DNA of 64,000 nt from Patescibacteria group bacterium (GCA_016861085.1 BOKR01000001.1:195271-259270), one strand, 5' to 3'. Shown: positions 41,757 through 55,378, counted from the stretch's first letter. Translations and numbers: made by a program. Notes: generated by a model not told the origin, from the letters alone.

Positions 41757-43240
<1,484 letters not shown>

Positions 43241-43706
43241 AAAAAAAGTTTGAGACTCATTTCTTGCGAAATGAGTTTAGGCTCTTATATTATTATCTAG
43301 ATTTATTTAAAAAATTAACGGATTGTACACATAACATATAAACTATATGTATGTATTTTGTAACATCATCAATAAATTGGGATATTACTGTACAATCCAC
43401 TTAATTATTTAAGTCGAATCTAGTATTTCAGTTCTATCACCATGTTTATTTCAGATATCTGTCATGAAATTTATATTGCTATATATAAATTTCTCTTAAC
43501 TTGTTAATGTTCGATTTGTTTTTCTGTCTATTTCAGGCACAAAAAACACAAGAACGGTAGTATAGTTCTTGTTTTTTATTTTGTAAACTCTCAATATTGT
43601 GAGTTTGTGAAGATGAGTATCTGCCTTGCGGCGGACTTTATCTTTGAAGATTAGTATTGTAACACACTCCAGAAGAAAAAGTCAAAGGGGGAATTTTTAT
43701 TAGGAA

Positions 43707-44744
43707 CTAGATTTCTGGAAACATAACTCGAAGAAATTCTTGAGCAACGTCTTTCTTTTTTCCGACCAATGGGTATTGATTCCAGTCCAAGCTTGGCGAA
43801 GAATTAATTTCAATTATTTTATATGAGTCCCTATTTTGATTAGTAAAAATATTTTTCGACATGAAATCGATACCGCATAATGCTAAGCCAGGTATAGCTC
43901 TAATTGTCTTCAAAGCAATTTTAAGCACGCTTGGGTGGACAGAATCTGTTAAATCAATAGTATCTCCCCCAAGACTAACATTCATGGCACTTTGCGGACG
44001 TAATAAAATTTGTTCATTCTTTTTTGGAATACTTTTTGGAGTCAAATTTTGATTTTTTAGGAAGCTTATGACTTCATCGTCAATAATGAGTTCATGATAT
44101 GTTGGAATGCTTTGCCTGATTGTATTTGTATTTTTCTTCTTGATGAGTTCGTGAATTGTTGATTTCCCATTACCTATAACATTTGCAGCAACTCTTTTGA
44201 TAATACTTAATACCTTTGCTTGAGTTGCTAGAATTCTAAATTCTTCGCCAATGAACATTTCTTCAATCAAAAGGTCAACTGATTTTTCTCCATAATAAGT
44301 TCGAACATTCATAATAGCTTGTTGAAATTTCTCAAAGGAATTCAAGTTTAAATGTACATTATTTCCTCGTTCATCGGAAATTGGTTTAATAACCAGTGGC
44401 TTTTTCATACCATCAAACAACTGCTGATAACATTCAATAGCATCGCCACTTTCAAGCAGAAATCCATGAGTTACCGATATGCCAGCTCGTTGCAACATGT
44501 GTTTGGCTATTCGTTTATCTTTACAGCAATAGTGCGCAAATGCGGTAGTTTCAGAAGGAACTTGTCCATAAAAGTATTTTTCGGTGTTTTTGTATTGTAG
44601 TCTGAACATTGCGGTATATGGAATTATTTCCCAAGAGATTCCCAATTTCTCAGCCTCTTCTATGACAAGAAGCGTGCTCTTACTGATTTTTTTTAGTTTA
44701 TCTTTTCCTAAAATAGTTTTTCTCTTTTGAAATATATCGTTCAT
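43707..44744 (-). CDS. Cyanophycin-synthetase-like ATP-grasp ligase: the CphA G-domain only, with no Mur-ligase domain
   Basis: VIKPISDERGNNVHL, NVIGNGKSTIHELIKKKN (CphA HVIGDGRSTIRELIEKEN), VSLGGDTIDLTDSVHP (CphA LSTGGTAIDRTDEIHP) and IIEINSSP (ATP-grasp Mg site). The protein stops after the grasp domain at 345 aa. Confidence 0.65.
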   Translation of the reverse strand: MNDIFQKRKTILGKDKLKKISKSTLLVIEEAEKLGISWEIIPYTAMFRLQYKNTEKYFYGQVPSETTAFAHYCCKDKRIAKHMLQRAGISVTHGFLLESGDAIECYQQLFDGMKKPLVIKPISDERGNNVHLNLNSFEKFQQAIMNVRTYYGEKSVDLLIEEMFIGEEFRILATQAKVLSIIKRVAANVIGNGKSTIHELIKKKNTNTIRQSIPTYHELIIDDEVISFLKNQNLTPKSIPKKNEQILLRPQSAMNVSLGGDTIDLTDSVHPSVLKIALKTIRAIPGLALCGIDFMSKNIFTNQNRDSYKIIEINSSPSLDWNQYPLVGKKKDVAQEFLRVMFPEI

Positions 44745-44928
44745 ACAAAAAATCCCCCTTAATCCGGCTTAAAAAAGCTACACTGTTTTGAAGTTATAAA
44801 TAACTAAGTATTAACGTGGTATCCACGAGAATTGGGAAAAATTATCCCATAACAGAGGTTCATTGTATCACAAATGGTCTGTATTAGCCAATTTTTCTGC
44901 TATATGTTGGATTGGTTTGAGTCGGGAT

Positions 44929-46053
44929 CTAGGAGATTACACCTCCACCCAAACAAATAAATTCATCATTTATTTTTTTATAAAATACGGCAGATTGGCC
45001 TTGTGCAATTCCTTTAGTTGGCTTTGTCAGCGTTACTGTACTTGCAGTTTTAATGTCATCTTTTACTTTGATTTTGCACTTCAATAAATCGCCAGTATGG
45101 CGGATCCTTACAAATAAATTAGTGCTATTTAAGGCCAATTTATCGTTGTTATTAACAATCCAATGCATATCTCTGACATCAAAAGTGTCTGTCAAAGTTT
45201 CATGACCAAAACCAACCACGAGCTGATTTTTTTCTGGATTTTTTCGAATAACATAAAATGGTGGAATATTGTGCTTATCTATTGTAGTTCCATCGTCCAT
45301 TTTAATGACGGTTTTTGCATTGATTTGGAAGCCGTTTCTTTGGCCTACAGTATAAAACCACAAGCCTTTGTGTGTACCAATGACATTTCCAGCGGTATCA
45401 ACAACCGCACCAGGGTTTTCGCCCAATCGTTCTTTCAAAAAATTATGCACATTAATATCGCCAATAAAACAAATTCCAACAGAATCTTTTTTATTGCTTA
45501 CATGGAGCTTGCGCTTCTCTGCTTCTGTTCTGACTTCTGACTTAAGCATGTTTTGAAGCGGAAACAATGTGTGGTCAATTTGGCCCTCGTTCAACAAATA
45601 TAAAAAGTACGTCTGATCTTTATGGGCATCTTTTGGAATTGCAAGTTGTTTGATAGTAGTGCCATCTTCAGTTTCATTCTCACTAATTTTGGCATAGTGA
45701 CCTGTTGCCACAAAATCAAAACCTTCCTTCATTGCCCAATCATAAAACATGCCGAATTTAATTTCTTTGTTGCACATTACATCTGGATTTGGAGTTCTGC
45801 CAGCTTCATATTCTGTAAAAAAATATTCCACAACTTTGTCACGGTACTCTTGTTTGAAATCTAAAACTTTGAATGGGATACCAAGATCAAGGGCGACTTT
45901 GAGTGCGTCTTTACGATCTTCTTCACTACGGCACCCTGGGGCACGCCAACACTCAAGGTATACTCCGGTAACAGCATATCCTTGTTCGAGTAGTAAGTGG
46001 GCGCAGACTGAAGAATCAACTCCGCCACTCATGCCAAGTGCTACTTTTTTCAT
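44929..46053 (-). CDS. mnmA: tRNA 2-thiouridine(34) synthase MnmA
   Basis: PP-loop ALGMSGGVDSSV, catalytic Cys region, and VATGHYA. I took the start at the ATG 46051-46053. Confidence 0.9.
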   Translation of the reverse strand: MKKVALGMSGGVDSSVCAHLLLEQGYAVTGVYLECWRAPGCRSEEDRKDALKVALDLGIPFKVLDFKQEYRDKVVEYFFTEYEAGRTPNPDVMCNKEIKFGMFYDWAMKEGFDFVATGHYAKISENETEDGTTIKQLAIPKDAHKDQTYFLYLLNEGQIDHTLFPLQNMLKSEVRTEAEKRKLHVSNKKDSVGICFIGDINVHNFLKERLGENPGAVVDTAGNVIGTHKGLWFYTVGQRNGFQINAKTVIKMDDGTTIDKHNIPPFYVIRKNPEKNQLVVGFGHETLTDTFDVRDMHWIVNNNDKLALNSTNLFVRIRHTGDLLKCKIKVKDDIKTASTVTLTKPTKGIAQGQSAVFYKKINDEFICLGGGVIS

Positions 46054-46063
46054 AAGTCCTATA

Positions 46064-46825
46064 TTATAGCAGATTTTGACAGTCTTTTTGACTGAATTGG
46101 CCATTTTTTGTTCGAGTAATAGAATATGTAGTTGCGGGAATATCGAGAACTTTGCTCAAGTCTCTCACGAAAGCTCGAACATACGTTCTGGTTGAAACTT
46201 CAATGTGTAGCGTGATAAATGGTAGTTGGGATATATTCTTTTTTTTCAGTGTTCTGAAAGTTTCCCCCCATTGTTCAGTGATTTTTTGTTGTCTGAAATC
46301 TCCTGAAACAAGTTGAATCCTATCAAAGATATTATTTTGCAAGACTGTTATATCAACAGAATCTACTTTTTTACAATCAATTGAAAAAATAGTGACCCTG
46401 TTTTTTTTCTGTTCAAACGTTTCACCTTTTTTTGCTAGGTCAAATCCTGATTTTCCTTTCACACGTTGTGCAGAAAAATTCGGCTGTATTTGTATTTGTG
46501 CACCTAAAAAATTTTGCAAGAGCGTTTTTAGTTTTTCACCAATTTCTACTTCGTTGAGAGGTTGTTTAGTGAGATCTTTCGTTATACCTAAGAGGTCTAA
46601 ACTATCAGTACTAACTCCAAATAGGATTTCAAAAGTATATGTTTTTTTTGCATCCTTAAACTCACCTTTTTTAAATCTATCATCACCAGTTAGTACTACT
46701 ACAATACCCTCTGCCATAGGGTCCAGAGTACCAGTATGAGTAGCCTTTTGGTGAATTTTTTCCCCAACTTTTTGTGCTAATAAATGTGTTGATTCGCCAA
46801 CTTTTTTCCAAATAGGAATAATCAT
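46064..46825 (-). CDS. truB: tRNA pseudouridine(55) synthase TruB
   Basis: Catalytic motif HTGTLDPMAEGIVVVLTG and TruB-family length. Confidence 0.85.
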   Translation of the reverse strand: MIIPIWKKVGESTHLLAQKVGEKIHQKATHTGTLDPMAEGIVVVLTGDDRFKKGEFKDAKKTYTFEILFGVSTDSLDLLGITKDLTKQPLNEVEIGEKLKTLLQNFLGAQIQIQPNFSAQRVKGKSGFDLAKKGETFEQKKNRVTIFSIDCKKVDSVDITVLQNNIFDRIQLVSGDFRQQKITEQWGETFRTLKKKNISQLPFITLHIEVSTRTYVRAFVRDLSKVLDIPATTYSITRTKNGQFSQKDCQNLL

Positions 46826-46858
46826 AGCTCTATATTATAGTATAATCTTGCAACCATT

Positions 46859-47713
46859 ATGAAAATATTAATTCTAACTACAGATACTGGAGCCACGCAT
46901 ACTGGCACCAGTGTTAGTTCGAGTACGGGTTTACTTCTTGACAGTTTGAAAAAAAATCACGAAGTGACACTCGCACTTTTTTCACAACTCTCACTGACGA
47001 TTGCAAAAGACAGCATACACATTGCGTACAAATCAACAGACATAAAATTGTTTGATTTCATTATTTTCAGATCAACAGATGATACTGAATTTAATATGGA
47101 ATGGTTGGCACAGATTGTTGGCGACTACTGTCTGGCAAATAACATAAAAAATATTAATGCTCAACATTATGCTTCTTTTGGTAATAGATGGAATAAATTG
47201 CAGCAAATCGAATTTTTTACTAGAAATGGTTTTTTAGTTCCTCACACCAAGTTCGGATACATTGAAAACTCACACTTTCCGCTCATTGCCAAGCCTTTAA
47301 TAGGAAGCCAAGGCAAAGGCATTCATATGGTAGCTTCAAAGAAAGAGCTAGTTCCACATTTAGGTACAATATATCAAGAGGTGCTTCCAAATAGACAAGA
47401 TTATAGAGTTCTTGTTTTGGGAGAAAAAATTCTTGGAGTTATGCTTAGAAAAGCCAATACTAATTCAGTAGTGAGTAATATCTCTGCAGGTGGAATAGGA
47501 GAAAAATCTGTAATTGACCCTCAGTTACAAGAAATCTCACTTCGTCTTGCACGGCTAAGCCGGCTCGATTTCTGTGGCATAGATCTAATGAAAAATAAGG
47601 ATGATGAATATGCTGTTCTGGAAGTCAATAGAAATCCAGGTTTTTTGGGATTTCAGAAAGTGACGGGTATTGAGGTTACTGCAGAAATTGAGGCACACTT
47701 ATCTGCATCGTGA
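46859..47713 (+). CDS. rimK: RimK-like ATP-grasp alpha-L-glutamate ligase (paralog A)
   Basis: IAKPLIGSQGKGIHMV, YRVLVLGEKILGVMLR, and the EVNRNPGFLGFQKVTG Mg-binding region. Confidence 0.75.
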   Translation: MKILILTTDTGATHTGTSVSSSTGLLLDSLKKNHEVTLALFSQLSLTIAKDSIHIAYKSTDIKLFDFIIFRSTDDTEFNMEWLAQIVGDYCLANNIKNINAQHYASFGNRWNKLQQIEFFTRNGFLVPHTKFGYIENSHFPLIAKPLIGSQGKGIHMVASKKELVPHLGTIYQEVLPNRQDYRVLVLGEKILGVMLRKANTNSVVSNISAGGIGEKSVIDPQLQEISLRLARLSRLDFCGIDLMKNKDDEYAVLEVNRNPGFLGFQKVTGIEVTAEIEAHLSAS

Positions 47714-48568
47714 AATGAGATACTCAATTATTTTGAGTGGAATGTCAATTCCCGTTGCTTGCATGAAGCCATTAAACTGAGGGGCTCTGTTCACCTCCAT
47801 AACCATGAGTTTTCCATTCATATCTTTGATTAAGTCAACACCTGCTATTTCATATTGCATGCTCTGTGCTGCAGCAAGAGTAAGGTTTTTTTCTTCATCT
47901 GAGAGATTGTATATTTCTGCCGAACCTCCCAGTGATACATTATTTCTAAATTCAGATTCATCTTGGCGGTATCTTTTGATTGCTCCTTGAATTGTATTCC
48001 CGATAACAAACACACGAATATCACCCTCATTGTCAACAAATTTTTGGATTATCAAAGATTGGTTTTCACTCTCAAACACATCAAGCAATTCATCAAGGGA
48101 ATGACACTTATATACACCTTCACCTTTTGAACCATCAGTGACTTTTGCGATAACAGGATACGTAATTTTTTCTTTGATCATCTCAAATGATTTTTTTGAT
48201 ACAAAATAGCTATCGATGATTGGAATATTATTCTGTCTCAGCCTCTGGTATTCAAAGCTTTTTCGATCAATCCATGGTCTGTTATGACAAAAGACGCTGT
48301 CAATAACTGGAATAGAATGTGATAAACAAAATTCTGAAATGAGAGCTTCTTCTTCGATGTATGGTCCAACAGTTCTAAAGAAAACGATATCAAAATCAAG
48401 TATGTTGTGTTCACCGATATACAACTCATGATTTTGCTGGGAGTATTTTATTAGTAATTCATCAAGTTTTTTGATAACAAGTTCCACTCCTAATTTTTTT
48501 GCAGCTTCAGTAAAAAGTGGCTCATGCAAGTATTGTGTTTTTTTAACTAAAAAAAGAATTTTTTTCAT
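47699..48568 (-). CDS. rimK: RimK-like ATP-grasp alpha-L-glutamate ligase (paralog B, convergent with paralog A with a 15-nt overlap of their 3' ends)
   Basis: PVIAKVTDGSKGEGVYK, DIRVFVIGN, EVNRAPQFNGFMQATGIDIP. Confidence 0.75.
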   Translation of the reverse strand: MKKILFLVKKTQYLHEPLFTEAAKKLGVELVIKKLDELLIKYSQQNHELYIGEHNILDFDIVFFRTVGPYIEEEALISEFCLSHSIPVIDSVFCHNRPWIDRKSFEYQRLRQNNIPIIDSYFVSKKSFEMIKEKITYPVIAKVTDGSKGEGVYKCHSLDELLDVFESENQSLIIQKFVDNEGDIRVFVIGNTIQGAIKRYRQDESEFRNNVSLGGSAEIYNLSDEEKNLTLAAAQSMQYEIAGVDLIKDMNGKLMVMEVNRAPQFNGFMQATGIDIPLKIIEYLISRCR

Positions 48569-48584
48569 AGATTCTTATATACTA

Positions 48585-49541
48585 TTATAGTTCGTTGTAG
48601 TCTCCTATTTTTTTAATTTCTTGTGCGTATTTTTCTTTGCTCAGTGAAAGGAAACTGGGTAGTTGAGGGTGAAACTTGGGGTTGAGTAAGATAGCTTTTT
48701 CTACGTCTTCTAGAGCCAGTTTTCCAAAATACAAATTTGTGCTGTCAAAATTATTTTTTTTCAGCCACCCATAAACGTCTATAAGTCCTTCAAAATAAAC
48801 TAGGTCCTTAGTATAGCCTCCAGGTTTACTGGTGTCAGTAAGTCCCCTTTTTTTCTTGAGTGCCATTAGCCAGCGTCGTTCTGGATTTTGGATATATGTT
48901 CCAAGGAAATTCCAAATTTCAACAAACGATGCATGCTGTGCTTTGGATACTGTTATGTAGTCAAGAGCAGACCAATAAGCAAACTTAAAGCTACGAGGCA
49001 TAAGAAAATGTAGTGTTGCTAATCCTTCTTCTGTTTTTAAGTAATCTGAGAACCCATATTTTTTTTTGCTTTTGAACCACGGTTGTTTTTCGTAGTTAAT
49101 TCTTCGTAATGCGTGTGTACCAACTTCGTGATACAGCATGCCCAGTAATCCTTCTTTTCTAAAATCAGGTGGGAGTCTCAATTTTATAGTATCAGCTGTA
49201 ATGCTTGTTCTTGAAACGAATGATGAGGACCATACAATTTTGAATCGTTTTTGCAAATTATGCATATGCAAAAATGTATAAATTGTTTTTTCAATATCAC
49301 GCTGTGAAACAACTGGACCTTCCATTTTTTGCAGGTCATCTTCTGTTTTGCCAAAGTATGCTTTTTCAACAATATTTTCTGCTATTTTGAGATATGCATT
49401 TGTAGTTGGTCCATATTTTTCTAATTTGTTTTGGTCAATTGATTCTGCATATCTAAATTGTGGATTGTAGGTTTGGTCGGCAAAAAACTTTTCTTTTTCT
49501 TGGTTGAGATTTTTAGGAATAAGTGAGGTTACAAAAGACAT
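48585..49541 (-). CDS. DUF1704 / MATCAP-family putative metallopeptidase ('QEGLA-motif' protein)
   Basis: Atypical HExxxH zinc motif (YHEVGTH) and the TEEGLATL equivalent of the QEGLA signature. Confidence 0.6.
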   Translation of the reverse strand: MSFVTSLIPKNLNQEKEKFFADQTYNPQFRYAESIDQNKLEKYGPTTNAYLKIAENIVEKAYFGKTEDDLQKMEGPVVSQRDIEKTIYTFLHMHNLQKRFKIVWSSSFVSRTSITADTIKLRLPPDFRKEGLLGMLYHEVGTHALRRINYEKQPWFKSKKKYGFSDYLKTEEGLATLHFLMPRSFKFAYWSALDYITVSKAQHASFVEIWNFLGTYIQNPERRWLMALKKKRGLTDTSKPGGYTKDLVYFEGLIDVYGWLKKNNFDSTNLYFGKLALEDVEKAILLNPKFHPQLPSFLSLSKEKYAQEIKKIGDYNEL

Positions 49542-49547
49542 AGATTT

Positions 49548-50837
49548 TTATTCTATTTCGTCGTCGCCAACAAGAAATCCCTGAAGATCTTTTCGGCCCA
49601 ACTCAATTTTGTGTTTTAATTTATTTAATTTCTTCACAACAATCATCGCGGTTGTAATCTTTTTATCTTTGATTTTTATCTTAACTTCAATAACTGGTAC
49701 TTTGCCCTCAATGATTTCTTGTTGTCTCCATAACAAATCATCAATGTCAAATAACCCAAGGTCATGAGCAAATTTTTCACTAATCGCACTGCGATATCTA
49801 CCTGTATTGACTAAAGTTTCAGACTCGTGTTCCTTATTATTTTCGTCATAGACTATAATAGTTGGTTGGGTTGAGATAACTTGTACTCCTGCATCAATTT
49901 TTATTTGATCTGAAAAATTATGTGTAAATAAAGCCTGAGCAACTTTTACCCCATGTTTTGGACTGGTAATTTCCAAGCCCTCTACTCGCTCAATTCTTCG
50001 TTTTAACCCTGCTCTATTACAAATTTGAATAGAAAGCCCCGGGAAACCGTTCAGTTCTACGATCATGGGACCTTTTTCAGGGTGAATAAAAATATCAGCT
50101 CCCATAAACTTATATCCAGCCACACTGGCTGCTTTCACAGCGGTTTCAAGTACCCTATTCCAGTGTGGGATTTTGATCCCAGAGACTTTTTTTTTGGTTC
50201 CTGGAAAATGTGTAATTCGCTCTTTTTTTCCTTTGACAGCATAGGTTGTCAATCCTGTTGCAATGTCTATTCCAAGGCCAATAGCTCCCTGGTCTAGGTT
50301 AGCTTTGCCTTCTGACTCTTTGGTTGGAATACGAGCCATGGCCATAACTGGGACAGAGTTAAACACGACGACTCGAATGTCAGGCGTCCCTTTGTATGAA
50401 TATTTGCTTAGGTCTGGATGAGCTGGTATTTTTTCTTCTAAAATTGCTTTGTGTGCGCTGCCCCAAGTGCTAAACTCGCCATCAAGGATGTTGTTAACAT
50501 GGAGGTTTAGGTCATCTTCAGAAATAGTTGCCCCTGTAGACAGTTTCCACTGTGCTTTGTTTGTCAGTTTTTTTGTGACTACCCAAATTCCTTTACCCGC
50601 ACTGCCGCTGGCAGGTTTCAAAACGAACGGAACAGGAATAATTTCCCAATTAATATTGTCTATATCTTGCAATGTTTCAAAGACATGAAACACTTGTGCT
50701 GTTGCTATATTATTCTCGATAAGCAACTCTTTTGTTTTGAGTTTAGAAAAACCATAGTTTTTGGCTTTGATAGAGTTCAATTTGGTGTACTGATACCTGG
50801 CGTTCATGCCAAGGATATGAGATGGTTTAACTGACAT
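49548..50837 (-). CDS. Fusion of a RimK-related ATP-grasp ligase (alpha-L-glutamate ligase-like) with a C-terminal retropepsin-like 'ATP-dependent Zn protease' (PF05618-like) domain
   Basis: The ATP-grasp carries LKPASGSAGKGIWVV, DIRVVVFNSVPVMAMARIP and IVELNGFPGLS. The C-terminal approx. 100 aa align to the RimK-associated retropepsin-like domain (..LVNTGRYRSAIS.. versus family ..DTGAxTSxL..; C-terminal ELGRKDLQGFLVGDDE versus LLGRxAL.GxFLVDP). Confidence 0.6.
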   Translation of the reverse strand: MSVKPSHILGMNARYQYTKLNSIKAKNYGFSKLKTKELLIENNIATAQVFHVFETLQDIDNINWEIIPVPFVLKPASGSAGKGIWVVTKKLTNKAQWKLSTGATISEDDLNLHVNNILDGEFSTWGSAHKAILEEKIPAHPDLSKYSYKGTPDIRVVVFNSVPVMAMARIPTKESEGKANLDQGAIGLGIDIATGLTTYAVKGKKERITHFPGTKKKVSGIKIPHWNRVLETAVKAASVAGYKFMGADIFIHPEKGPMIVELNGFPGLSIQICNRAGLKRRIERVEGLEITSPKHGVKVAQALFTHNFSDQIKIDAGVQVISTQPTIIVYDENNKEHESETLVNTGRYRSAISEKFAHDLGLFDIDDLLWRQQEIIEGKVPVIEVKIKIKDKKITTAMIVVKKLNKLKHKIELGRKDLQGFLVGDDEIE

Positions 50838-50842
50838 GGACG

Positions 50843-51802
50843 TTATTCTTCCTCTTCAATTAAAGACCTAAAACGTAATCGCTCGCTGATTCTTAAACCG
50901 ACGAACTTTCCAATCAAAATGTTAATAAAGCCTGAAAAGAACATAAGAAGTTCTGGTTCTGATAATGCAAATTGCTGGAGTGGCTCCCATTTTAGTAAGA
51001 ACCCAGAAACCACAGCCAAAGCAATTGTTTCAATTGTCAACGCAAGTGCTTCACTCTGCTTAGTCCTTGCTTGAGCATCTAAGAAGTTTTCTGCCAAAAG
51101 GATCAAAATTAAAATTGGGAATATATTGACACTTAATAAAGTGTTTAGTTTCACAAATGGTGCTACGACCAATGTGACAAAAATACCGATAGAAACTATC
51201 CAAAGTAGTAACGCAGTTCGGGGGAGATATGAAATTTTCGCAAGTTTAAGGAAGCGTTTTGCAATTAAAGCAGCAATGGCAATCACAAAGAAAATTAACA
51301 AGCCTTCAATAACACCTGTTGAGACAAGTGCAACCGAAAGAACAGCAGGAATGTAAATTCCAAAACCTCTCAGACCAATAATGTGTCTAGATGCGGCAAT
51401 AAAAGATGCAATCAATGGGAACAAGAGCAACAACACAAGCACGTTCACTGGTAAACCATTAGCAACAGCTTGTCTAATAGCATGTTGCAAAAAATTATTC
51501 CAATTTAACTTTTCTGGAGGGTTTTCATCAAGATATGCCTCAAGCCTACTTTTTTGTTTACCTCCAGTTTCGGTAATGTCTTGATCTTTTTTTTCTTGGA
51601 TTTTTTCAACGATTTCGGCAGAAGGAGTGGCTAATCTAGCGCTATCAGTGGCTTCCCCTGCTTGTGTAGCGACAGAAGTGGTGTCTATCACAATTTCTGC
51701 ATCTTCTAGGGTCACTGCGTAAGAAATTTTTGGGTTGAGAACTAGCGCAAAGGAAGTAAAGAACGCAAAAAAAACTACTACTGCTAATTGGCTGATCTTC
51801 AT
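50843..51802 (-). CDS. Seven-TM membrane protein, a 7TM_transglut-like module without a transglutaminase domain
   Basis: N-terminal signal/TM, an approx. 90-aa extracytoplasmic segment, then seven hydrophobic helices. It lies immediately upstream of the ATP-grasp/retropepsin gene with a 5-nt gap. I preferred the start at the ATG 51800-51802. Confidence 0.5.
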   Translation of the reverse strand: MKISQLAVVVFFAFFTSFALVLNPKISYAVTLEDAEIVIDTTSVATQAGEATDSARLATPSAEIVEKIQEKKDQDITETGGKQKSRLEAYLDENPPEKLNWNNFLQHAIRQAVANGLPVNVLVLLLLFPLIASFIAASRHIIGLRGFGIYIPAVLSVALVSTGVIEGLLIFFVIAIAALIAKRFLKLAKISYLPRTALLLWIVSIGIFVTLVVAPFVKLNTLLSVNIFPILILILLAENFLDAQARTKQSEALALTIETIALAVVSGFLLKWEPLQQFALSEPELLMFFSGFINILIGKFVGLRISERLRFRSLIEEEE

Positions 51803-51821
51803 AGGTATATTATACCTTACA

Positions 51822-52217
51822 TCACAAAATCTTGCTGATAATGGAATGGACGAAGCCAAGTAAAATCGATACAAATACAAGTGACCAAAATTGAGACAAT
51901 TGTGTGCCAAATACTATCATTTCTTGAATATGAAATCCTGGGACTAAATAGGTGGCTAGCCAAAGGAGAAAAATATTGATTATTCCAGAGAATAATCCAA
52001 GTGTGATTATATTTATAGGAAGAAATAGTAATTTGAGTACTGGTCTGACCAATGAATATAGGATTGTGAGAACGATACTTGCAATTATTAAGGTTGCCAA
52101 ACTGGTGAAACCAACAGTAGGCAACGCCCAAGCCAGGACACCTAATGTAAAAGCTGTTATTAGTATTGCTCGCAACATATTACTATGTAGTATAGCAAAT
52201 TGTGAAACGCTACTCAA
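51822..52217 (-). CDS. DUF360 (phage holin 4_2-like) small 4-TM membrane protein
   Basis: VRPVLKLLFLPINIITLGLFSGIINIFLLWLAT matches the DUF360 core (RPxL..LxLP...LTLGLF..V.NA). Confidence 0.5.
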   Translation of the reverse strand: MSSVSQFAILHSNMLRAILITAFTLGVLAWALPTVGFTSLATLIIASIVLTILYSLVRPVLKLLFLPINIITLGLFSGIINIFLLWLATYLVPGFHIQEMIVFGTQLSQFWSLVFVSILLGFVHSIISKIL

Positions 52218-53655
52218 ACATTGCTGTTAACCGCTTTTTCTTGTGTTGCTTTTGTGCAAAGCGATGTGACTCATCTCTAATCTGCTGAATTAGTTTTAGT
52301 GTTGGATGACTTGAATCAAGTTTAACGAGGTGGTATTTAAGGTTACTTATTTTTCTACCATGTTCCACTTGTGTTTCGTAATATGGCAAGACTAGCCTAT
52401 CTGGATTCTTAGCGATCCCGATTACAGGTACGTACCATTTCCATAGTTTCAAAACTGATTTTACTTGTCCTTTACCACCGTCAATCAAGACTAAATTTGG
52501 AGTCCCCCACTCTGGGTGGTTTTGTCTTCTAACGATTGCTTCTTGCAACATATGAAAATCATTTGGCGTATTAAGCGTTTTAATGTTAAAAATGCGGTAT
52601 TGGTCTGTGTCTGGTTGTCCATTAGTAAAGGTAACCAACGAAACAGCTGGATTTGTACCTTGGATGTTGCTGACGTCGTAACCTTCTATTCTAGTAAGTG
52701 GCATTTGCTTTGGAAGGCCTAAATATTGGGAAAGAATTTTTTGTAAGTAAATAACGCCATCCTCACTAATTTGTTCTTTGAGTGCTGCAGTTGTGAGTTC
52801 AGGCTTTAGTTTGTGTTGCTTGCTGGTAACTTCTGCAATCAATTTAAGTTGATCTCGCACAACTGCAGCCTCCTCATAATTTTGGGTTTCGATTGCTTGC
52901 CCCATTTTTTGTTGCAGTGAGTCGGTAACTAACTTTTTTTTACCTCTCAAAAAATGAATTAAATTTTGAATATTTTCGTTATATTTTCCTGGGGAAATCT
53001 CACCAATACAGGCACCTGGACACAAATCTAAGTGGTAATAAAAGCATGGTTGATTATCCTTGTTTCTTCTATTTTCGTGTGCTAGTTTTTTATTGCACCA
53101 AGGAAAAATTTTTCGAGCAATGTTCAAGACTTCATTTGTTTTATAGGCACTGGGAAATGGTCCAAGGACTGTTGTCCCATTTCGTTGTTTTTTTTGTAAC
53201 TCTTTTTTTCTAACTTTTAATACCCTAGGATAAACTTCATCGGTAATTTCTATGTATAGTGGACTCTTGTCGTCTTTTAAAAGTGTGTTGTATTCTGGTT
53301 GGTAGGTTCGAATCAGTTCAGCTTCAACCAACAATGCTTGTAGTTCACTTTCAAGTACTTTGTGTTTGACGGTTTGAGCGAGTGAAACCATCTGTTTTAT
53401 TTTGCTTGTTAGCAGTGGATATTTGGCGTACGAACTAACTCTGTTCTTGAGTTTCTTGGCTTTTCCGACGTATAAGACTTGAGAGTTTTGGCCGATAAAC
53501 CAATACACTCCCGGTGACAAGGGTAATGATGATAAAGCCGACTCCCAAATAAAGGTAGGTTTCTTGTTTTTGGAGGGCGGTAATGAGCTGTGGTCCGCTG
53601 ACGATTTGTTGTTGGGCTGGTTCATAAAGTGCTTCTCCAGTGTTTTTCCATACAT
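52210..53655 (-). CDS. uvrC: Excinuclease ABC subunit C, a short form without the C-terminal (HhH)2 domain
   Basis: GIY-YIG (PGVYWFIGQNSQVLYVGKAKKLKNRVSSY), UvrBC-interaction region, and RNase H-like endonuclease domain. The true start is uncertain: the ATG-defined N-terminus overlaps the upstream gene by about 220 nt, and a TTG at 53518-53520 just before the GIY-YIG domain is an alternative. Confidence 0.8.
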   Translation of the reverse strand: MYGKTLEKHFMNQPNNKSSADHSSLPPSKNKKPTFIWESALSSLPLSPGVYWFIGQNSQVLYVGKAKKLKNRVSSYAKYPLLTSKIKQMVSLAQTVKHKVLESELQALLVEAELIRTYQPEYNTLLKDDKSPLYIEITDEVYPRVLKVRKKELQKKQRNGTTVLGPFPSAYKTNEVLNIARKIFPWCNKKLAHENRRNKDNQPCFYYHLDLCPGACIGEISPGKYNENIQNLIHFLRGKKKLVTDSLQQKMGQAIETQNYEEAAVVRDQLKLIAEVTSKQHKLKPELTTAALKEQISEDGVIYLQKILSQYLGLPKQMPLTRIEGYDVSNIQGTNPAVSLVTFTNGQPDTDQYRIFNIKTLNTPNDFHMLQEAIVRRQNHPEWGTPNLVLIDGGKGQVKSVLKLWKWYVPVIGIAKNPDRLVLPYYETQVEHGRKISNLKYHLVKLDSSHPTLKLIQQIRDESHRFAQKQHKKKRLTAMFE

Positions 53656-55378
53656 AGTTTACCGTGATTTCGCTTCTTTTTGGAACTGACAAACCTTTTG
53701 TGAAGAACGTTGCTGAAAAGGTTTTTGTTTGATATGGCAATAATACTGCTAAAGTACTATTTTCTCCCAGTGCTACATCTATTTCAGGATCCTGCGCTAT
53801 AATCTGTGGTTGTATATCATACCAGGCCTGTCCAGTGTCGTTACTAATTGAAATAGTGAACATGCCCGGAATAGGAATAAAAAAGAATTTTTTTTGCTCA
53901 ACTTTTGTTGAAATTGCTGGGCCGATATTTGGGAACGGTTCGTCACTAATAGTGACGTCTACGTCTTTCGTTTCCTCTTGTGAAAGTGCTTTATAGCTTC
54001 CTGCTGGGTTGGGAAGGGTGCTGGAATTACCATTAATTGCAAACACAATATGGTTGAGATCAAATAGGTTGAAGTAGTCTACTCCTCCAGTGGTGTTTCC
54101 CCATGTGGGATCAATAGGAATCCAACGATTCTGTTGCTGATCAAAATATTCTGGCCAAGAATGTAGGATATCACCTGCAAAACTGAGTGGTCGTAGGATT
54201 GAGTTTTCTGAGTACGCATACCCTACTAATCTTCGAGCGGGTATATTTGCTGCTCTGGCAATCGCAATAAAGCTATCTGTGAATTCTTGACAGACCGCAT
54301 CTTCACTGTTCTTAAATGCGTCGACAGCTCCATAGCGAGTTAGTGTCTCTAGAGTGATTTCCCTTCTAGAGTACTGTAGGGTATCAACTACATGATCATA
54401 TATAGATTCAGCGGTTGGAAACGACTGTGCTTTTTCTTTGATTATTGAGTTATTACTCTCCCAGTATTTATCATTTTGGGTATGATTTTTTTGCACCGGG
54501 ACTCCTGGAACGATTATATTTGGTTCAAGGGTTACTTGGGCTACTGCTGTTAAATGTACTACAGTTACAGATGAAGCAGGAATTTTATATGAGGCGATCC
54601 AATTCCCATCGGCATCTTGTTTTATTTCTTCAGGAAGTGGATCAAGATCATGGTAGTGGAGCTTTTGATATTGTGTGTCTGGCGGTAAGGCAATTTGTGC
54701 AATAGCTGGACTACTAGAGGGATTTTCTAGGTGATATCTTAGTGTCATTTTGTAATTTTGTTCCGTGCCAAAGATTGCTGAAATTGGTTCACCTTTTGGG
54801 AGGTCAAATACAATTTTGGCTTCAGTCTGAACAAACTCTGACGAGGTTGGGGTTGGGGTAACCCTAACGGGAAGCGAGAAAAAAACTGGAGTGTAGAGAA
54901 TTGTTCTATTTGAATCGAATGTATTTTCATCTCCAAGTTGAGGAATATGGACTTCTAGAACTCTTCCGGCTACTAAAGCCACATCTGGATTTGAGTACTC
55001 AATAGTGAAATCTCTGACTTTTCCTTGGCCAACAACTTCATCTTCAAAAGTAATTCCAATACTTGTCCCACTTTCGTTACTGACAATGTTTGCTGGAATC
55101 TCTTTTGACCCCGATTTTACTATGATATTTTGCAAGCCAAAATAAGTTGTCTTTAGCGCATATTGTTTAAGATAAATAGTTGGTGTTTTATTGGTTATTC
55201 GTATATGGTGAGAAACGAACGTATTGCCATCTCTTGAAACTCTATATGTCGTTTCAATGGTTGTATTAAAATTTTCTTTTGCAGTATTTTCTTGTGCCAA
55301 AACAGATGAAGCGCTAAAAGGTAGCGTCAAAAAGAACAAGAAAAAAACAGTAAAAATACCACGTAATAATTGACGCAT
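53435..55378 (-). CDS. Secreted/membrane-anchored transglutaminase-like cysteine protease (TGc) with a large N-terminal beta-rich domain
   Basis: Signal peptide, a TGc core with Cys (VCQEFTD), His (LHSWPEY) and Asp (IPIDPT) in canonical order and spacing, and a C-terminal TM helix with a basic tail. Confidence 0.65.
   Translation of the reverse strand: MRQLLRGIFTVFFLFFLTLPFSASSVLAQENTAKENFNTTIETTYRVSRDGNTFVSHHIRITNKTPTIYLKQYALKTTYFGLQNIIVKSGSKEIPANIVSNESGTSIGITFEDEVVGQGKVRDFTIEYSNPDVALVAGRVLEVHIPQLGDENTFDSNRTILYTPVFFSLPVRVTPTPTSSEFVQTEAKIVFDLPKGEPISAIFGTEQNYKMTLRYHLENPSSSPAIAQIALPPDTQYQKLHYHDLDPLPEEIKQDADGNWIASYKIPASSVTVVHLTAVAQVTLEPNIIVPGVPVQKNHTQNDKYWESNNSIIKEKAQSFPTAESIYDHVVDTLQYSRREITLETLTRYGAVDAFKNSEDAVCQEFTDSFIAIARAANIPARRLVGYAYSENSILRPLSFAGDILHSWPEYFDQQQNRWIPIDPTWGNTTGGVDYFNLFDLNHIVFAINGNSSTLPNPAGSYKALSQEETKDVDVTISDEPFPNIGPAISTKVEQKKFFFIPIPGMFTISISNDTGQAWYDIQPQIIAQDPEIDVALGENSTLAVLLPYQTKTFSATFFTKGLSVPKRSEITVNYVWKNTGEALYEPAQQQIVSGPQLITALQKQETYLYLGVGFIIITLVTGSVLVYRPKLSSLIRRKSQETQEQS

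Follow-up and report, generated by a model that had tools for sequence, protein, structure and literature searches.

A putative Patescibacterial variant of the Rlo-type system pairs an ATP-grasp ligase with a MATCAP-family peptidase

The window analyzed here is a stretch of 64,000 nucleotides (nt) from a Patescibacteria group bacterium (GCA_016861085.1, BOKR01000001.1:195271-259270), in which ATP-grasp ligases, peptidase-like proteins, and membrane proteins are encoded close together between positions 43,707 and 55,378. Judged from its sequence, the locus appears to be a Patescibacterial variant of the Rlo-type system with RimK/RimB features. Its conserved unit consists of four genes—encoding a small DUF360 membrane protein, a seven-transmembrane (7TM) protein, a RloC-type ATP-grasp ligase with a fused retropepsin-like domain, and a peptidase of the MATCAP/DUF1704 family—and is smaller than the system proposed in a first-pass annotation of the same DNA. 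The reading that we favor, with a probability of roughly 0.6, is that of a Rlo-variant ligase/trimmer pair working at the membrane on an acidic chain at a C terminus. The source is a metagenome-assembled genome (MAG) with a 1.17-Mb contig, which agrees with the reduced genome assumed at first pass.

A Conserved Four-Gene Core

All four core genes lie on the minus strand. The first encodes the DUF360 protein (51822-52217; PF04020, 73.5 bits), a small membrane protein with four transmembrane (TM) helices. It is followed by the 7TM_transglut-family protein (50843-51802; PF14402, 81 bits), which represents a RloB-like 7TM module, by the ligase with its C-terminal retropepsin-like domain (49548-50837), and by the cytoplasmic MATCAP metallocarboxypeptidase (48585-49541). 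The 7TM protein, the ligase, and MATCAP are 100% identical to BroJett025_02290, BroJett025_02280, and BroJett025_02270, respectively. All open reading frames (ORFs) of the first-pass annotation are present at the positions it gave, and its family assignments (ATP-grasp, MATCAP, 7TM, DUF360, and transglutaminase) are each upheld by Pfam/NCBIfam profile searches. It had also described minus-strand genes that overlap or are separated by 3-17 nt. The tight packing is real, with slightly different gaps of 5-19 nt from uvrC through the downstream RimK-B gene: uvrC and DUF360 overlap by 8 nt, and the spacers are 19 nt between DUF360 and 7TM, 5 nt between 7TM and ligase, 6 nt between ligase and MATCAP, and 16 nt between MATCAP and RimK-B. 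Promoter and terminator scans of the window gave the same counts as shuffled sequence and do not delimit the operon boundaries.

Conservation was assessed by scanning one genome per GTDB species with a MATCAP profile, which yielded 80 loci (designated by L-numbers) whose six-frame ORFs were searched with the window proteins. Sixty of these carry the window-type MATCAP clade, and the denominators given here and below are the loci with sequence available. The ligase is encoded directly upstream of MATCAP in 54 of 55 loci; the 7TM protein is present in 51 of 52 and, encoded just before it, DUF360 in 49 of 50; uvrC is found in 45 of 48 and a transglutaminase-like protein in 42 of 45. The neighborhood is conserved across related genomes in the way that a functional cluster, as proposed at first pass, would be: the same order is found in ~58 species-level genomes, over which MATCAP identity falls from 68% to 34%, and also on metagenomic contigs. 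The core of DUF360, 7TM, fused ligase, and MATCAP persists where the uvr/transglutaminase flank is missing or altered (L028, L046, L039, and L058) and is, hence, distinct from the housekeeping synteny around it.

More distant relatives contain the same parts in other arrangements. In Saccharibacteria/Dojkabacteria (L083-L087), the order differs from the window, and MATCAP lies beside a divergently transcribed array of a RimK-like gene, two CphA-like genes, an ATPgrasp_ST-retropepsin fusion with an intact Asp-Thr-Gly (DTG) motif, and a bare 7TM_transglut gene. In Gracilibacteria (L079), a gene for a PKD-7TM fusion is followed by one for a single protein of 810 amino acids (aa), in which ATPgrasp_ST, a degenerate retropepsin-like stretch, and MATCAP are joined. 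The plasmid CP007061 of Halobacterium sp. DL1 encodes a 589-aa fusion of 7TM_transglut and ATPgrasp_ST (L007 5155-6921); its record lists no gene for this ORF. In Legionella and Aeromonas, the order is secreted RloA, RloB (inactive transglutaminase plus 7TM), and RloC, and the Legionella RloB contains PF14400. On a replicon of Photobacterium sp. GJ3 (L005 4639-7642), a GshB-like ATP-grasp gene overlaps the gene of a 665-aa fusion of N-formylglutamate amidohydrolase and MATCAP, which is an independent ligase/MATCAP pairing in Gammaproteobacteria. A plasmid collection contributed five distant matches, used as outgroups only. The dedicated, membrane-associated ligation/trimming pathway proposed at first pass gains from the adjacency in 51-54 of 52-55 species, from three fusions, and from the multi-ligase cluster of Saccharibacteria; its membership had been drawn too widely.

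The Fused Ligase and Its Retropepsin-Like Domain

The ligase matches PF14397 (ATPgrasp_ST) with 204 bits against a cutoff of 31 and TIGR02291 with 257 bits. The latter score lies below the equivalog cutoff of 314, so the protein belongs to the same family as RloC without being its equivalog. The ATP-grasp part, of the "alpha-L-glutamate ligase-like" type, spans aa 1 to ~300 and is followed by a C-terminal domain of ~115 aa (49551-49892). More than 120 homolog clusters with 64-89% identity share this architecture of 426-430 aa, and the fusion to the retropepsin-like domain occurs in all members.

Sequence profiles barely detect the C-terminal domain. The only Pfam match is gag-asp_proteas with E = 0.036, and PF05618 is detected neither here nor in the DTG-bearing Saccharibacteria protein. 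A profile of the domain gives a weak match to Ddi1 in the PDB (E = 0.3), and hhalign against Legionella RloA returns a probability of 1%. The fold emerges from an AlphaFold2 model of ligase residues 295-429 (predicted local distance difference test score of 81.8): in a Foldseek search of the PDB, the top 50 matches are all retropepsins with a probability of 1.0 and TM-scores of 0.5-0.6, among them Ddi1 (E = 5e-5), Pseudomonas RloA (9g58) and RloA2 (9g59), and Legionella Lpg0085. The position of the catalytic Asp is taken by Asn344 (codon 49806-49808), giving Asn-Thr-Gly (NTG) in place of DTG. Among 184 homologs, the motif reads NTG in 110, NTS in 33, DTK in 17, and DTG in six, five of the latter being from Saccharibacteria or Dojkabacteria. 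Hence, the retropepsin-like domain named at first pass stands as a fold seen by AlphaFold and Foldseek, to which Pfam is blind, and lacks the Asp-Thr-Gly motif. Because Asn344 occupies the catalytic position and the corresponding Pseudomonas RloA variant D48N is inactive (PMC12239564), the domain is most likely non-catalytic, and its sequence indicates that it is almost certainly dead in the window protein.

Ten positions of the domain are conserved as Lys or Arg (298, 347, 349, 379, 390, 402, 403, 406, 410, and 415). RloA binds poly-Glu via conserved Arg/Lys residues (PMC12239564), and by analogy these positions would fit its basic poly-Glu-binding channel. Neither the fused ligase nor MATCAP has a signal peptide, which places both peptidase modules in the cytoplasm. 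As a separate observation, the ligase C terminus just past the retropepsin-like domain (49551-49571 in the window) is short, acidic, and often ends in Glu, reading DDEIE in the window and GEIEE, GDIEE, or EIEEE elsewhere; this may be a tail that the protein itself binds or modifies.

The MATCAP Peptidase and Its Animal Relatives

MATCAP reaches 78 bits with PF08014 (cutoff 27), and with the QEGLA equivalog TIGR02421 it remains below the cutoff (74 versus 339 bits). It contains the zinc motif H138-E139-xxx-H143 and the sequence E171-E172-G-L-A (EEGLA); H138, E139, H143, E171, E172, G173, and A175 are invariant in 26 MATCAP sequences. Over 310 aa, covering the whole catalytic domain, it is 33% identical to starfish KIAA0895L (E = 6e-47). 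When 1.84 billion representative proteins were searched with a profile of the Patescibacterial clade, 2685 relatives were retrieved. Among them, animal MATCAP1/2 (KIAA0895 and KIAA0895L), at 196-216 bits, are level with the most divergent ligase-linked bacterial members (213-228 bits). Groups scoring lower than the animal enzymes comprise Patescibacterial paralogs beside PD-(D/E)XK nucleases or Schlafen-AlbA_2 proteins (137-194 bits), DPANN archaea (106-130), Saccharibacteria/Dojkabacteria (77-107), and Photobacterium (83). These scores suggest that the MATCAP clade of Patescibacteria and the peptidase acting on eukaryotic tubulin tails are closely linked in evolution. With this placement, the prokaryotic proteins nearest to the animal tubulin detyrosinase/deglutamylase would share an operon with ATP-grasp ligases of the Glu type, a point relevant to how the eukaryotic machinery for tubulin-tail modification arose.

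The MATCAP/TMCP enzymes of animals and the ciliate Tetrahymena take Tyr and Glu off C termini and trim poly-Glu chains (PMC10499314). By analogy, the window MATCAP is likely a trimming carboxypeptidase acting on acidic C termini, and it is likely the working peptidase of the pair, since the retropepsin-like domain is almost certainly dead. In other Patescibacterial paralogs, MATCAP follows, after a 4-nt gap, a PD-(D/E)XK nuclease or a Schlafen AlbA_2-domain protein of ~550 aa, with no ligase beside it; both contexts are conserved (L067, L068, L070, and L071; L069, L072, L074, and L077).

The 7TM Protein, Its Oligo-Glu Tail, and DUF360

The 7TM protein consists of an N-terminal signal/anchor, an exposed region of ~90 aa, seven TM helices, and a cytoplasmic tail; a start at M37 is consistent with the 319-aa protein at NCBI. 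All seven helices are present in the AlphaFold2 model, where the exposed region is short and partly disordered. The RloB profile NF052267 is matched at positions 314-507 of 508 only, and PF14400 (inactive transglutaminase) matches neither the whole protein nor its N-terminal 159 residues, where only unrelated families appear below threshold. The transglutaminase half of the 7TM/inactive-transglutaminase module invoked at first pass is, therefore, absent. The C terminus is placed in the cytoplasm because seven TM helices follow an exported N terminus and because the Halobacterium homolog is fused at this end to an ATP-grasp domain. The exposed N terminus differs by lineage: it is a PKD domain in Gracilibacteria (L079 4149-5750), an inactive transglutaminase domain in Proteobacteria (L006 4463-5989), and short and of low complexity in the window, with the 7TM core and the juxtamembrane motif retained across all of these lineages. 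Such a variable exposed region on a constant core appears more typical of a sensor or receptor than of a transporter. A PDB fold search with the model gave nothing below E = 1 and does not decide between the two. DUF360 is absent from the Saccharibacteria and Gracilibacteria versions of the module.

The final stretch of the 7TM protein is ...GLRISERLRFRSLIEEEE, ending in RFRSLIEEEE and a stop codon; the four Glu residues are genome-encoded by the codons GAA GAG GAA GAA (50846-50857, minus strand). Two to five terminal Glu residues are found in 117 of 120 homolog clusters with 58-100% identity (two in 35, three in 36, four in 44, and five in 2), and the species loci show the same pattern, compared with a background of ~1% of other ORFs ending in Glu-Glu. 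Tail length is steady among close relatives and drifts with divergence. A by-product of the Shine-Dalgarno signal of the following gene was considered as a cause of the tail and ruled out by codon usage and spacing: GAG makes up 30% of the Glu codons of the tail, close to the 29% of the gene body, and genes whose downstream start codon lies 25-30 nt off, or whose spacer has a separate GGAGG, retain the tail, so a translational-signal artifact is unlikely. The tail co-occurs with the degenerate retropepsin motif in 49 of 55 loci of the degenerate-motif clades and is missing from the four Saccharibacteria loci with an intact DTG and a visible 7TM C terminus, a correlation that rests on essentially two clades. 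From its sequence, the tail is a candidate primer or docking site.

Comparison with Known Systems

Associations of 7TM, ATP-grasp, and retropepsin modules were reportedly first predicted by Iyer, Abhiman, Burroughs, and Aravind in 2009. The nearest known system, characterized by genetics, is the rloABC operon of Pseudomonas aeruginosa and P. fluorescens (Lormand et al., mBio 2025; PMC12239564). There, RloA cleaves runs of at least eight Glu residues, and the system affects tolerance of hypo-osmotic stress, envelope phenotypes, antibiotic tolerance, biofilm formation, and cell shape (PMC12239564). The only bacterial proteins known to be polyglutamylated are S6 and Legionella SdeA (PMC12239564). 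Both systems encode a PF14397/TIGR02291 ligase right after a 7TM_transglut protein, contain a retropepsin-fold module with a basic surface, and share the juxtamembrane motif G-[LY]-[RK]-x-S-E-x-x-R-F. However, RloA is a separate secreted enzyme, whereas the window domain is fused to the ligase and has neither a signal peptide nor the catalytic Asp; the window 7TM protein lacks the periplasmic inactive transglutaminase domain (PF14400); and the window adds MATCAP, DUF360, extra RimK-like and CphA-like ligases, and the oligo-Glu 7TM tail. The window scores also lie under the NCBIfam equivalog cutoffs (257 versus 314; 57 versus 900). The assembly described at first pass, hence, has a precedent for its core in rloABC (PMC12239564), and what is new is the variant with a MATCAP partner. 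In the literature searched, no paper ties MATCAP/DUF1704 to RimK-type ligases or describes a Patescibacterial module of this kind.

RimK and RimB, together with RimA, form the polyglutamylation system of ribosomal protein S6 (PMC4741518 and PMC10092738). The likeness lies in a Glu ligase of the ATP-grasp type and a retropepsin-type partner, both cytoplasmic, the partner binding ligase and poly-Glu, and in an acceptor that is a protein C terminus already ending in Glu-Glu; the window's RimK-B is, in addition, a bona fide RimK-family member. In contrast, the main ligase of the window is of the RloC type, the module is membrane-coupled, its retropepsin partner is inactive and fused, and the trimmer is a MATCAP metallopeptidase. 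The tubulin tail cycle (TTL/TTLL versus MATCAP/TMCP and CCP) of eukaryotes likewise opposes an ATP-grasp ligase, which puts Glu or Tyr onto acidic C-terminal tails, to a zinc carboxypeptidase of the MATCAP family (PMC10499314). Unlike that cycle, the window system has no tubulin, its ligases are of the RloC and RimK rather than the TTL type, and its candidate acceptor is the 7TM protein. In the gammaproteobacterial QEGLA type (TIGR02421), represented by Photobacterium, a MATCAP-family peptidase directly follows and overlaps an ATP-grasp amidoligase. This ligase, however, is of the GSH-S type, MATCAP is fused to N-formylglutamate amidohydrolase, there is no 7TM protein, and similarity to the window MATCAP is low (28% over 64% of the query; 83 bits).

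Proposed Mechanism

For amino-acid specificity, acceptor, direction of flow, and physiological role, we infer the following scheme. The cytoplasmic RloC-like ligase, complexed with the 7TM protein, would work at the inner membrane face, where it would spend ATP to add alpha-linked Glu, or other acidic residues, to a C terminus and, thus, build an oligo- or poly-Glu chain. The fused retropepsin fold, having lost its catalytic Asp and kept its basic surface, would bind this acidic chain. MATCAP would take residues off the C terminus of the chain, the balance between ligase and trimmer setting its length, and the extra RimK-like and CphA-G-like ligases may, where present, extend or diversify it. 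As the foremost candidate for acceptor or docking element, we tentatively propose the cytoplasmic oligo-Glu tail of the 7TM protein; a free peptide that is passed on to the membrane proteins 7TM and DUF360 is about as likely an acceptor. With its oligo-Glu C terminus encoded 5 nt upstream of the ligase gene, the 7TM protein is a concrete candidate for the substrate of Rlo-type systems. MATCAP would be a second, unsuspected peptidase partner of such systems, and a naturally inactivated retropepsin may read poly-Glu.

A more specific version, which we consider doubtful, is that the 7TM protein is reversibly polyglutamylated. Herein the encoded ...EE(EE) tail would be the primer, the RloC-like ligase (with RimK) the writer, the dead retropepsin-like domain the reader, and MATCAP the eraser. 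If true, this would constitute a bacterial "tail code," with writer, reader, and eraser, on a membrane protein resembling a receptor, and the eukaryotic tubulin-tail enzyme MATCAP would have descended from such a prokaryotic setting. Many ultra-small genomes that shed most non-essential genes have kept the module, which is, therefore, probably important for envelope or host-attachment biology.

Several points weigh against the ligase/trimmer reading. Most of the 58 genomes with the conserved order belong to one broad clade, and part of that order is shared ancestry. MATCAP is not tied to a ligase everywhere: paralogs in other Patescibacteria have no ligase in their vicinity and adjoin PD-(D/E)XK nucleases or Schlafen-AlbA_2 proteins. 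The tail is not a general acceptor of the family, because the Glu tail is missing from canonical RloB (Legionella and Aeromonas) and from the 7TM proteins of Saccharibacteria and the Halobacterium 7TM C terminus is fused to the ligase. The modeled 7TM fold matches no solved transporter or receptor.

Accessory Ligases and Neighboring Genes

Three further ATP-grasp ligases are encoded downstream of the core. RimK-B (47699-48568, minus strand), a RimK-family alpha-L-glutamate ligase, reaches 166 bits with TIGR00768 and, thus, meets the curated family threshold of 143; its match to the TTL family is weak (24.9 bits). RimK-A (46859-47713, plus strand), which is 27% identical to RimK-B and encoded convergently with it, is a divergent, RimK-like protein only (TIGR00768, 100 bits, below the cutoff of 143; PF08443, 84 bits). 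The third (43707-44744, minus strand) resembles the G domain of CphA and covers positions 153-473 of 862 of TIGR02068 with 219 bits against a cutoff of 850. In cyanophycin synthetase CphA1, which consists of N, G, and M domains over ~870 aa, the G domain elongates the poly-Asp backbone. The window protein matches only this domain and has neither the N domain nor the Mur-ligase-like M domain, and this, together with its score, indicates that it is not a cyanophycin synthetase. The four ligases had been placed in one cluster at first pass; mnmA and truB, however, separate the CphA-like gene from the remaining genes.

Extra ATP-grasp genes occur downstream in 14 of 50 relatives, one or two in each, and in none of the other 36. 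They are of the RimK-B-like, RimK-A-like, and CphA-like types, and in ten of the 14 they directly adjoin MATCAP, on either strand. RimK-B homologs stand straight after MATCAP in eight loci (L008, L019, L020, L023, L046, L054, L061, and L076) and after MATCAP with a CphA-like gene between in L066, and RimK-A homologs lie near MATCAP in L008, L013, L016, and L057; the pair as in the window recurs in L008 only. The CphA-like gene follows mnmA in L009 and L028, as in the window, and stands straight after MATCAP in L013, L065, and L066; the Saccharibacteria clusters contain two copies. Hence, RimK-A, RimK-B, and the CphA-like ligase, counted into the system at first pass, are variable accessories rather than core. 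Support for their link to the core is real and weaker than for the core itself. The gene of ribosomal protein S6 is not encoded within the window.

Upstream of the core, uvrC lies between the DUF360 gene and that of a transglutaminase-like protein (TGase; 53435-55378, minus strand; PF01841 (Transglut_core), 56.7 bits), with uvrA on the far side of the latter (Pfam/NCBIfam). At its 3' end, the TGase gene extends over at least ~100 nt of the 5' part of uvrC (53435-53655), and the GIY-YIG motif of uvrC starts within this overlap. TGase is a secreted, C-terminally anchored protein with a signal peptide, an intact Cys-His-Asp triad (AVCQEF / HSWPEY / IPIDPTW), and a C-terminal TM anchor. Its position wedged between uvrA and uvrC is kept in >40 related genomes, and none is encoded near the Saccharibacteria or Gracilibacteria clusters. 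An origin as the split-off N-terminal domain of RloB is not supported (BLASTP against Legionella RloB, E = 0.62). That uvrC and extracellular TGase belong to the system, as supposed at first pass, is not supported: their placement is the synteny of one clade only, which the core outlives where it is broken (L028, L046, L039, and L058), and both should be treated as neighbors rather than components.

Alternative Explanations

The alternative that survives best, though still doubtful, is an envelope polymer pathway. Three or four ligases would herein build an acidic peptide in free form or a poly-amino-acid, composed either of alpha-linked Glu or of Glu and Asp mixed, 7TM and/or DUF360 would export it, MATCAP would act in cytoplasmic proofreading, and the extracellular TGase would attach or remodel it on the surface. 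RimK and CphA G-domains are polymerizing ligases, multi-ligase clusters recur in Saccharibacteria, and a secreted TGase with an intact triad neighbors the core in 42 of 45 loci, all of which would suit such a route. In Pseudomonas, furthermore, loss of rloB or rloC suppresses the phenotype of losing the protease, which is periplasmic, implying that some RloB/RloC product reaches the periplasm (PMC12239564). However, both peptidase modules of the window are cytoplasmic, with the retropepsin fused to an ATP-dependent enzyme, and the 7TM model is unlike any known exporter. TGase, moreover, sits inside the uvrA-uvrC block and is missing from some core loci and from the Saccharibacteria and Gracilibacteria versions, and 36 of 50 relatives do without the extra ligases.

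An unlikely alternative is that the Glu tail is a docking motif only, which binds the basic, inactive retropepsin-like domain and holds ligase and 7TM protein together, a non-covalent counterpart of the fusion in Halobacterium, with the true substrate elsewhere. The distribution of the tail over degenerate-motif clades and its absence from the four intact-DTG Saccharibacteria loci argue for it, as do the covalent 7TM-ligase fusion of Halobacterium and the ten basic positions, which parallel the binding of poly-Glu by RloA through Arg/Lys. Yet the correlation comes from essentially two clades, and two to five Glu are fewer than the at least eight that RloA requires. A free C terminus ending in Glu-Glu beside a RimK-type ligase is, in addition, exactly the substrate configuration of S6 and RimK.

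Two unrelated functions are a decidedly unlikely explanation, in which RimK-A and RimK-B would be Glu ligases for S6 (or a cofactor) and the CphA-like protein a small-metabolite enzyme, merely adjacent in a compact genome. RimK-B does pass the curated RimK threshold, most relatives lack the RimK genes, which otherwise differ in strand and position, and truB and mnmA part the CphA-like gene from the core. Against this, the slot right after MATCAP is filled by an extra ATP-grasp gene in at least ten species and with three ligase types, and the Saccharibacteria clusters unite RimK-like, CphA-like, 7TM, and RloC genes; with ~1000 genes per genome, repeated chance placement by MATCAP is very unlikely. 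Chance or purely inherited synteny without shared function is far less probable still—despite the equal conservation of uvrA, uvrC, truB, and mnmA in the block and promoter and terminator counts at the shuffled level—and is untenable for the core, because its parts are joined by three independent domain fusions and re-assembled in another order in Saccharibacteria, it outlasts broken flanking synteny, and the 7TM-ligase pair also occurs in Proteobacteria and Archaea.

Additional Observations

A complete 16S rRNA gene (41760-43245) adjoins the gene of the CphA-like ligase; no 23S or 5S rRNA gene lies within the window, so the rRNA genes are unlinked. Approximately 30 MAGs with a Patescibacteria-type locus (L008, L015, L017, and L023, among others) are titled "Pseudomonadales bacterium," "Methylococcaceae," or "Flavobacteriaceae"; such titles are probably wrong taxonomic labels.

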